Source: a virus. Taken from it: a stretch of DNA of 64,000 nt. Shown piece by piece: positions 34,102 through 35,625 of this stretch. The DNA lies in the IMG/VR virus record IMGVR_UViG_3300033145_000788, positions 1-64,000 of that record. The stretch is one strand, 5' to 3'. The first letter of the stretch is position 1, and each line of letters starts with the position of its first letter. The translations under genes and the position numbers were made by a program. The notes beneath the pieces are model-generated. The model did not search any database. It saw nothing but the letters and a program-made list of their open reading frames with translations, and was not told where the DNA came from.

Positions 34102-34263
34102 CGGCATAAAACAAAAGAAATTCAAGGAGGTTAAACGAGCCAAGAAATGAGAGAAATCTAATTCTGTTAAGCGAGCCAGGGAGTCAAAGAAACCCATCAG
34201 GGAGAAGCGAGCCAAGTACCCTAAGAAACCCAGGGAGCTCAAGCGAGAAACCCAAAAGGCCGG
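34102..34263 (+). ncRNA. TIGR-type array H1: 4 units of 36 nt plus a trailing half unit
   Basis: AGCCA-N9-AGAAACCCA-N9-AGCG units starting 34102, 34138, 34174, 34210. Confidence 0.85.
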
Positions 34264-34303
34264 AAACGGAGAAAGAAACTAAAAAGAAGAAAGGAAAAAC
34301 AAA

Positions 34304-35257
34304 ATGGCCAAGGTAGCATTGAAGGAAGAACTGAGGGAGATCCAGGATGGCAAATTCAAGACGACCGGGGAAATCATTCCCGAAGACAGTTTTTTATTTG
34401 ACACGCATCGCCTGACCCCGAAAGTCAAGGGTGGGACATATGGTGATATTTCTAATGTGGAGGTGGTTGATCCCGTTGAGCATATGAAGATTCACGGGAA
34501 CTTGAGAGAGCGGCCGGAGGAATTTGATAAGCTGAAGGCTATCGTTGATGACCGAGTGCAAGTGATGAAGCTTAAGAATAAGATCAACAATCAACTGAAG
34601 GCCTTTGAACGAAGGGTTGATTATTCATTGAGGGATATTTATGAGCATCTCCAAGAGGGATTGAATCGGGAGAACAAGGAACTCGGAAAGAGGGATAGGA
34701 TATTAGAGAAGGCGGTCAAGGAGATCATTCAATATGATGCGTTGGCCGCCGCTGCGTTATTAGTTCCCAATGTTGGGCCGGTCATAGTGGCTAACTGCAT
34801 TGTCTATATTGACTTAAAAAAGGCGAGGCATGCATCTAGCCTGTGGAAATACGTGGGGGTTGATAAACCTCGCCACAAGAAATATGTGAAAAGAGAATCT
34901 GGAGGAGGAAACCGAACGCTTCTAACGGTTCTATATCAAATGGCAGAGTGCCAAATGAAAGGTTATGGGCCGTATCGGGAGATATATGATCGTGAGAAAG
35001 AGAGCCGTTCTGTCTCCGAAAAAATTACCTGGAGTAGAAATACAGAAGGCAAACTGATTGAATGTGTTTGGAAGGATACTATGCCGAGTCACCGTCATGG
35101 CCATGCGCTCAGGATGGTCATAAAGCACTTCCTTGCGGACTATTGGTTTGTGGGGCGGATGCTCCAGGGTTTGCCCACGAATCCGAGTTATGCCGAGGCG
35201 ATTTTGGGGAAAGAACATCGGACGATTAGTCCCCGTGAGAGGGGGTGGAAGTTTTAG
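34304..35257 (+). CDS. tasH: HNH-Nop domain protein (TasH-like RNA-guided nuclease)
   Basis: N-terminal HNH-like DTHRLTPKVKGG..NVEVV..EHMKIH; coiled coil; Nop/IS110-C-like VPNVGPVIVA..SSLWKYVG..GNRTL..HGHALRMVIKHFLADYW; flanked by arrays. Confidence 0.82.
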   Translation: MAKVALKEELREIQDGKFKTTGEIIPEDSFLFDTHRLTPKVKGGTYGDISNVEVVDPVEHMKIHGNLRERPEEFDKLKAIVDDRVQVMKLKNKINNQLKAFERRVDYSLRDIYEHLQEGLNRENKELGKRDRILEKAVKEIIQYDALAAAALLVPNVGPVIVANCIVYIDLKKARHASSLWKYVGVDKPRHKKYVKRESGGGNRTLLTVLYQMAECQMKGYGPYREIYDREKESRSVSEKITWSRNTEGKLIECVWKDTMPSHRHGHALRMVIKHFLADYWFVGRMLQGLPTNPSYAEAILGKEHRTISPRERGWKF

Positions 35258-35265
35258 AATGAAAA

Positions 35266-35625
35266 AGTTAAGATGGAGAAGAAACCCATCCCACTGAAGC
35301 GAGCTAACGAACCAAAGAAACCCACTGATTATAAGCGAGCCAAGGTGATAAAGAAACCCAGTTAGCGGAAGCGAGCTACGGTTAGCAAGAAAGCCATACA
35401 AGAAAAGCGAGTTAAATTATATAAGAAATTCGGTAATGAAAAGCAAGCCATTTCTGGGAAGGAATCCATTATCGGCAAGCGAGCCAAAAAAAATAAGAAA
35501 CCCACATCGAGGAAGTGAGCTACAAAAAAAAAGAAAACCATTGATTAGAAGCGAGCTATGGCCCAAAAGAAAACCAGTCTACAAAAGCGAGCCATAGACC
35601 TCAAGAAACCCAAGGTCAAGAAGCG
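35266..35625 (+). ncRNA. TIGR-type array H2: 10 units of exactly 36 nt
   Basis: AGYYA-N9-AGAAACCCA-N9-AGCG with starts 35266, 35302 ... 35590; all variable segments differ. Confidence 0.92.

Follow-up and report, generated by a model that had tools for sequence, protein, structure and literature searches.

Two TIGR-Tas systems lie next to each other in the phage genome analysed here, and in the arrays of both the last base of the spacers, which directly precedes box D on its 5' side, is strongly constrained. Is this base a part of the guide, a trace of the way in which spacers are acquired, or an extension of the repeat? The constraint was pointed out by a sequence-only reading of the window, that is, the whole stretch of DNA analysed, which comprises the first 64 kb of a contig of 98,976 bp with 46% G+C.

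Two dual-repeat TIGR-Tas systems in a phage replication module

By the definition of Faure et al. 2025 (PMC12045711), the window contains two complete TIGR-Tas systems of the dual-repeat type. Both loci lie inside the replication/recombination module of the phage (Table 1); their neighbours are replication and recombination genes, and no adaptation genes were found near the TasH or the TasR locus. Autocorrelation at a lag of 36 nt over the whole contig revealed exactly four arrays, which flank the two tas genes. Tandem Repeats Finder reported nothing on these arrays, because half of every 36-nt unit varies. The arrays were parsed by repeat anchoring; stacking in a fixed 36-nt frame breaks on 1-nt indels.

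The parse yielded 9-nt repeats separated by 9-nt gaps in a 36-nt unit, with one gap of 10 nt. Each repeat is opened by box D and closed by box C, and the edge and loop repeats of a system co-vary: both have the form AG....CCA in the TasH (H) arrays and UG....CUA in the TasR (R) arrays. A 3'-truncated edge repeat closes all four arrays (AGCGAGAAA at 34242, AGCGAATTT at 35622, TGTG at 39081 and TGTGA at 40717). Both Tas proteins include a coiled coil and a Nop domain homologous to those of solved Tas proteins, and Pfam gave a weak Transposase_20 match, as expected for Nop/IS110-like domains.

A promoter-like element of ~50 nt (AAGAAAAAGTTTAAA, about 17 nt, TTATATAATATAGGTA) is present in three copies. 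Besides the copy listed in Table 1, just before the upstream array of tasH, a second (35636-35686) lies just after the downstream array, and the third is found at 57555-57605. With such copies at both of its ends, the array-tasH-array block looks like a single transcription unit between two putative phage promoters. A look-up of sequencing runs that include this DNA or its RNA listed none.

Table 1 Features of the two TIGR loci and of the surrounding module (positions in the window)
Feature	Position	Strand	Remarks
Clamp loader gene			replication/recombination module, first in gene order
DNA methyltransferase gene			second in gene order
DNA polymerase gene	30707-34039		third in gene order
Promoter-like element	34045-34095	+	directly upstream of the TasH upstream array; putative function, from position and a -10-like TATAAT
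TasH upstream TIGR array	34107-34250	+	8 alternating repeats; 8 variable segments, 7 with terminal A
tasH	34304-35257	+	317 aa; HNH, coiled coil and Nop domain
TasH downstream TIGR array	35271-35630	+	20 repeats; 20 variable segments, all with terminal A
UvsX-like recombinase gene	37865-38902		fourth in gene order
TasR upstream TIGR array	38900-39084	+	10 variable segments, 9 with terminal T or C
tasR	39212-40345	+	377 aa; RuvC-like N-terminus, coiled coil and Nop domain
Solo TasR unit	40381-40407	+	loop repeat, spacer and degenerate edge repeat
TasR downstream TIGR array	40447-40721	+	15 full repeats and truncated edge repeat (TGTGA)
Exonuclease gene	40709-41587		fifth in gene order

A conserved A next to box D in the TasH arrays

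TasH matches SpTasH (PDB 9W03 and others) over residues 19-316 with an E value of 2.8e-90, and tblastn showed it to be 48% identical to SpTasH of Salicola phage CGphi29. The equivalents of the HNH histidines (SpTasH H54/H58) and of W249/H256 are kept in the alignment. The upstream array, the repeats of which are partly degenerate, is built of the loop repeat AGAAAYYCA and the edge repeat AGCGAGCCA and closes with a truncated edge repeat. In the downstream array the loop repeat is AGAAACCCA and the edge repeat AGCGAGCYA; its final edge repeat is truncated (AGCGA) and followed by a run of T.

With each 9-nt box (AG....CCA) and the 9 nt after it taken as the frame, the count is 8 + 20 = 28 segments. 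All end in A except for one (34143-34151), which ends in G, and our recount of 27/28 therefore agrees with that of the sequence-only reading. Against a background of 33% A at the other spacer positions this has a binomial p of 1.9e-12.

Fifteen further TasH loci were collected from IMG/VR, and 22 TasH-type arrays on 14 other phage contigs were analysed. The sequence-only reading had named free variation of this position among homologues as an argument against its observation; for the H arrays we found A in 271/300 spacers and C in 2/300. The A is equally frequent before edge and before loop repeats, while positions 1-8 carry 21-43% A. No covariation between spacer A and spacer B was seen in TasH arrays at any pair of positions. 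Some adjacent TasH spacers of the window look like same-strand, shifted copies of each other, perhaps by chance, namely GGGAGTCA (34179-34186) and TCAGGGAG (34197-34204), and GTTAGCGG (35361-35368) and CGGTTAGC (35379-35386).

The closest system described is SpTIGR-TasH of Salicola phage CGphi29 (PDB 9W03/9W04). It shares with the window's TasH system an HNH-Nop protein, an identical edge repeat (AAGCGAGCCA), the 36-nt unit, an AG box D, a CCA box C, N8A spacers, carriage by a phage and an array downstream of the gene. The two differ in the loop repeat, AAGAAACCCA here and AAGACAACCA in SpTIGR, and only here do arrays lie on both sides of the gene, within a replication/recombination module and with a second TIGR system adjacent. 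In the phage record, 8 variable bases separate the repeats AAGACAACCA (loop) and AAGCGAGCCA (edge) of the SpTIGR array. Accordingly, 16 variable nucleotides are given for SpTIGR in the main text of Faure et al. 2025, and its spacers are written 'N8A' in the legend of fig. S5A (PMC12045711). In the cryo-EM structure of SpTasH, the 8-nt spacer A pairs with DNA in an 8-bp heteroduplex, those of TaTasR and PlTasA being longer by one base pair, and the mismatch substrates MM1-MM16 probe 16 positions (Guan 2026, bioRxiv 10.64898/2026.08.11.744272).

The A of the TasH arrays is thus an already published property of the family, and 27/28 A needs no new mechanism, as it is documented there. The proposal that H guides are really 8+8 nt with an AAG box is borne out by the N8A spacers and 8-bp heteroduplex of SpTIGR and by the A of the homologous spacers. 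Judging from the 48% identity and the near-identical repeats that it shares with SpTasH, the window's TasH would likewise form an 8-bp heteroduplex and leave the A unpaired.

A pyrimidine next to box D in the TasR arrays

TasR matches TaTasR (PDB 9MTY) with an E value of 1.9e-33. Its best relatives among 1.84 billion representative proteins are 37-41% identical, with none above 41%. In the upstream array the loop repeat is TGAAATCTA and the edge repeat TGCGAGCTA, with TGTG as the terminal truncated edge repeat; the 10-nt spacer (39053-39062) belongs to this array and adjoins a degenerate loop repeat (TGAAGCCTA). The solo unit downstream of tasR is followed by a 39-nt stretch without repeats (to 40446), after which the main downstream array begins out of phase.

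Together, the solo unit and the downstream array hold 18 variable segments, 16 of which end in T or C. Over all of the TasR arrays the base 5' of the TG box is T in 17 segments, C in 8, G in 2 and A in 1. The 25/28 pyrimidines reported before were therefore reproduced, although the R segments do not lie inside 34107-35621, where they had been placed, but around tasR. With 52% pyrimidine at positions 1-8 the bias has a p of 3.3e-5; leaving out two near-duplicate spacers gives 23/26 (p 9.7e-5). A strict count of only those spacers that stand between two well-formed repeats gives 19/22 (p 7e-4), a result that comes only in fourth place when 810 position-by-class tests on related arrays are ranked. 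The bias is symmetric, with 9/11 before loop repeats and 10/11 before edge repeats.

In both systems the constrained base is also found beside first or degenerate repeats (34107-34115, 35271-35279, 38909-38917, 40372-40380 and 40438-40446), as expected of a feature of the repeat.

When the two half-guides of a unit are taken together, 11 of the 14 TasR units of the window have pyrimidines at position 9 of both spacers (Y/Y), two have Watson-Crick partners and one a G-U pair, and all three purines at position 9 sit in these complementary or wobble units. Y/Y units make up only 20/278 (7%) in 50 other arrays (Fisher 9e-10, in a post hoc comparison).

Some TasR spacers recur. TAAACTTTT is spacer A of two successive units (38981-38989 and 39017-39025) with a different spacer B in each, from which it appears that half-guides duplicate independently of their partner. 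GAAGTTGAT and GAAATTGAT (40492-40500 and 40564-40572) differ by one base.

The nearest solved system is TaTIGR-TasR of Thermoproteota archaeon LB_CRA_1 (PDB 9MTY). The two have in common a RuvC-Nop protein, 9-nt repeats that start with UG, the 36-nt unit, an edge repeat with the core UGCGAGC and a loop repeat rich in A; box C is CUA in the window's TasR arrays and CCA in TaTIGR. TaTasR pairs all nine spacer bases in a published 9-bp heteroduplex, and at position 9 its own units are C/G, G/G, C/G, A/A, A/T and A/A. The predominance of Y/Y in the window's TasR units is unlike these, and they do not follow the 9+9 pattern of the TaTasR type, in which position 9 is a variable guide base that in relatives is either complementary between the two spacers of a tigRNA or a purine.

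Position 9 in related arrays with a UG box D

A single-protein query with TasR retrieved no viral relatives, while a five-sequence TasR alignment retrieved 2 viral and 30 metagenome loci. TasR relatives from metagenomes were combined with arrays of the same repeat pattern from IMG/VR to a deduplicated set of 63 loci and 853 spacers (loci are given below by their L numbers). Two repeat-pattern matches in genome contigs, L051 and L052, were rejected, being isolated chance matches without arrays. Most loci of the UG set encode nuclease-less, TasA-like proteins and some a full-length TasR.

In the 12 arrays that lie beside TasR homologues, position 9 is 43% pyrimidine (n=177), like the other positions. 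The pyrimidine rule is hence not a property of TasR as such and is specific to the TasR lineage of the window. Three states of position 9 are seen in the 50 other UG-type arrays: no constraint, a fixed purine/purine, and complementarity of the two half-guides. Nearly always it is G or a purine in L073, L107, L084, L079, L057, L089, L085 and L104, with G/G in L073, L107, L084, L057 and L089; it is solely A (A/A) in L054. In L045, L068 and L074 position 9 is A where an edge repeat follows and T where a loop repeat follows; L036, L022, L049 and L050 show the reverse, and no constraint is seen in L077, L069 and L105. As many TasA and TasR lineages have a fixed base just 5' of box D, the effective box D would often be 3 nt long and the guides 8+8. 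A coupling of the pyrimidine at position 9 to the CUA box C was considered and rejected: the CUA arrays L036, L050, L054 and L093 are A/T, A/A or mixed.

Two other features of single loci were observed. In L045 (4537-5290, about 40 distinct spacers) a purine occupies position 5, by which the C-5 rule fixes the cut site, in 32/36 spacers (p 4e-6). Two IMG/VR phages (L049, 12417-12640; L050, 1900-2110) carry the repeats TGAAAYCTA and TGCGAGCYA, near-identical to those of the window's TasR arrays, beside nuclease-less Tas proteins of 283-290 aa with a Cys4 insertion that can hardly be aligned with the window's TasR (E 3e-4). Inheritance of the repeats may be uncoupled from that of the Tas proteins.

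Position 9 covaries between the two half-guides of related arrays

To describe the complementary class, we scored UG-box-D arrays with the window left out and near-duplicates removed (278 units), and took the expectation from shuffles within each array. Within a tigRNA, position 9 of spacer A (A9) and position 9 of spacer B (B9) were Watson-Crick partners in 123/278 units, with 83.2 +/- 5.6 expected (z 7.1). The signal is seen in the metagenome loci alone (29/41, z 3.3) and in the IMG/VR loci alone (94/237, z 6.2). As a control, spacer B was compared with spacer A of the next unit, across the edge repeat and at the same distance of 18 nt, and gave no signal (91/317, z 0.5). Among the 81 pairs of spacer A and spacer B positions, (9,9) alone stands out (z 7.2), all others having z ≤2.7, and position 9 shows no sign of pairing with position 1 on the other side of a repeat. 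Single arrays contain all four Watson-Crick combinations; in L060, for instance, TAAGGGA at A9 faces ATTCCCT at B9 in seven units out of seven. G-U pairs are depleted (z -2.5).

The related loci that show the rule span L019 to L122, and none of them is in the window. They include the nearest relatives of TasR, L019 and L022, two metagenome loci that share with the window's TasR (38-40% identity) the full-length RuvC-Nop protein, dual repeats and 9-nt spacers. Their repeats have the form UG....CCA, and A9 and B9 are complementary in 5/5 units of L019 and 6/6 of L022, as against 2/14 in the window's TasR.

In the TIGR papers of 2025-2026 that we read, there is no mention of covariation between A9 and B9. 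The published statement is that spacers do not covary and that overlap is unlikely; one substrate with a 1-nt overlap was tested, the outcome of which is given in a figure (Faure fig. S7D, PMC12045711).

What would make the two bases complementary? A direct RNA-RNA pair between A9 and B9 is unlikely: the protomer that binds the loop repeat is not the one that binds the edge repeat (PMC12045711) and position 9 is anchored by box D, which should place the two bases at opposite ends of the dimer, and the depletion of G-U pairs also speaks against it. From the published 8-nt 3' overhang (PMC12045711) we derived that the 3' ends of the half-guides meet at the centre of the target. If both ends there read a single central base pair, A9 and B9 would be expected to be complementary. 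The covariation thus suggests that the natural targets of the systems that obey the rule are 17 bp long, with a one-base overlap and a shared central base pair. Such an overlap would form 18 RNA-DNA pairs for 17 DNA pairs broken, and the energetic argument in the legend of fig. S7D (Faure, PMC12045711) fits it, whereas the reading as a whole contradicts the published statement on covariation and overlap.

Searches for targets

Self-targets in the 98,976-bp contig were sought for each of the window's 36 tigRNA-like spacer pairs, with at most 2 mismatches and a gap of 0-2. The AT-rich H pairs gave near matches at chance level and the R pairs none. Exact targets of 333 related tigRNAs, either overlapped (17 bp) or contiguous (18 bp), were not found in about 0.97 Mb of loci, as expected for such a small search space. 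For 16-18-mers searched against IMG/VR, several chance matches are to be expected.

The base next to box D as a probable extension of the repeat

Taken together, we consider it likely that the constrained base is structural and not a guide base in both systems, and that TasH and TasR read 8+8. For TasH, the terminal A is the published conserved A of 'N8A' and would functionally be a part of the repeat, unpaired with the target, so that each half-guide would read 8 nt and each tigRNA 16 nt. In the window's TasR the same position would have turned pyrimidine-only in both half-guides. In either system the base may act as a structural extension of box D, held symmetrically by both protomers of the Tas homodimer, with a protein pocket presumably setting which base is preferred.

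Several observations are in line with this structural role. The symmetric pyrimidine bias fits recognition by a symmetric dimer, and the fixed base at position 9 that is common in other lineages fits a feature of the repeat better than a guide base. Neither A/A nor Y/Y could read one shared base pair, as they are not complementary. With complementarity broken in most of its units, the last base of the window's TasR spacers is probably not a guide base either. That this TasR itself reads 8+8 with position 9 unpaired is a reading that we favour slightly, by analogy with TasH. The only solved dual-repeat TasR structure, that of TaTasR, pairs all nine nucleotides and argues against it; the window's TasR is distant from TaTasR, and an 8-bp heteroduplex is an extrapolation from TasH. 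The choice between two bases (T 17, C 8) is also a weaker constraint than that of a normal repeat position, and the bias rests on 28 segments, a few of them near-duplicates.

Could position 9 be a true guide base in both systems? The targets of TasH would then have 5'-AT-3' at their centre and those of TasR a pyrimidine-purine step, perhaps for the ease with which it unstacks where the two heteroduplexes meet. Such central motifs had been offered by the sequence-only reading. They agree with the pairing of all nine spacer bases by TaTasR on an 18-bp target, with the meeting of the spacer 3' ends at the target centre, as deduced from the published overhang, and with the formal counting of the A within the spacer by Faure et al. 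(PMC12045711). However, the heteroduplex of SpTasH is 8 bp long and leaves the A unpaired, the A is kept across 22 arrays although both the phages and the spacers are unrelated, and published flank screens revealed no target motif for TasH or TasR (PMC12045711). Guide bases proper at position 9 are complementary, which makes A/A impossible, and on a contiguous 18-bp target such complementary bases would merely amount to a homodinucleotide centre. For TasR, none of the homologous arrays shows the pyrimidine bias, and Y/Y breaks complementarity. A guide function of the constrained base is hence unlikely, and the motifs proposed for the two kinds of targets found no support.

The base could also be a scar of spacer acquisition, e.g. 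if the processing or ligation of newly inserted spacer pairs favoured certain bases beside box D. The published work describes no acquisition mechanism that would argue against this, and the unit-level duplications (TAAACTTTT twice, GAAGTTGAT and GAAATTGAT) indicate that arrays change by some process at the DNA level. We nevertheless regard a scar as quite unlikely, because the fixed base tracks the Tas and repeat lineage (A in the TasH clade, G in one TasA clade, Y here) and also flanks degenerate terminal repeats. Moreover, no adaptation gene lies near either locus, and the constraint is symmetric for both half-guides, as binding by a homodimer predicts. A very unlikely explanation is that only the A of TasH is real and the pyrimidine bias of TasR arose by chance, inflated by duplicated spacers. 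The p of the strict parse is modest, and similar biases are seen elsewhere, at position 5 of L045 and at position 6 of L028, where the bias stems from duplicated units. Against chance stand the full count and the count freed of near-duplicates, as well as the excess of Y/Y units over the other arrays, a post hoc comparison. The observation that started this analysis was thus confirmed, and its interpretation was partly supported.

A further parallel is offered by the box C/D s(no)RNAs of archaea and eukaryotes, which are bound by Nop5 or Nop56/58 and likewise hold two guides that are bounded by motifs resembling box C and box D, on a dimer of Nop-domain proteins. Their counting rule from the box is D+5, that of TIGR C-5. 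Unlike TIGR, which targets both DNA strands, they target RNA, come with K-turns and L7Ae, and are not encoded in arrays built from 36-nt units. Canonically box D is CUGA, and the YUGA of the window's TasR loop repeat resembles it, which we take as a lead and not as homology.

Implications for guide length and targets of TIGR systems

How the structural base and the covariation fit together can be stated only tentatively, at somewhat less than even confidence: in most UG-type systems the two spacers would overlap by one base pair on 17-bp targets, and the fixed-base lineages would have given up this base and read 8+1+8. The latter would comprise TasH with A/A, some TasA with G/G and, so far uniquely, the window's TasR with Y/Y. 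If the 17-bp register were general, the unread centre might be 1 bp instead of the 2 nt of the sequence-only reading; TaTasR tolerates gaps of 0-2 bp (PMC12045711).

The pyrimidine rule of TasR is new, with modest statistics in the window and a strong contrast with its relatives. It represents a third state of the base by box D, after 'guide base' and 'fixed purine', and for anyone who programs the nuclease this state decides between a guide of 16 and one of 18 nt. The covariation of A9 and B9 outweighs the TasR result and deserves an independent follow-up, as the first sequence clue to the natural target geometry of TIGR systems. It bears on the origin of the spacer pairs and on their targets, which are the main unknowns according to the papers of 2025-2026. 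If it is true, the model for protospacer searches would be a 17-bp overlapped target, i.e. 17-mers with a shared centre, and the mechanism that makes spacer pairs would copy, from both strands of a single 17-bp duplex, the nine bases at the 5' end.
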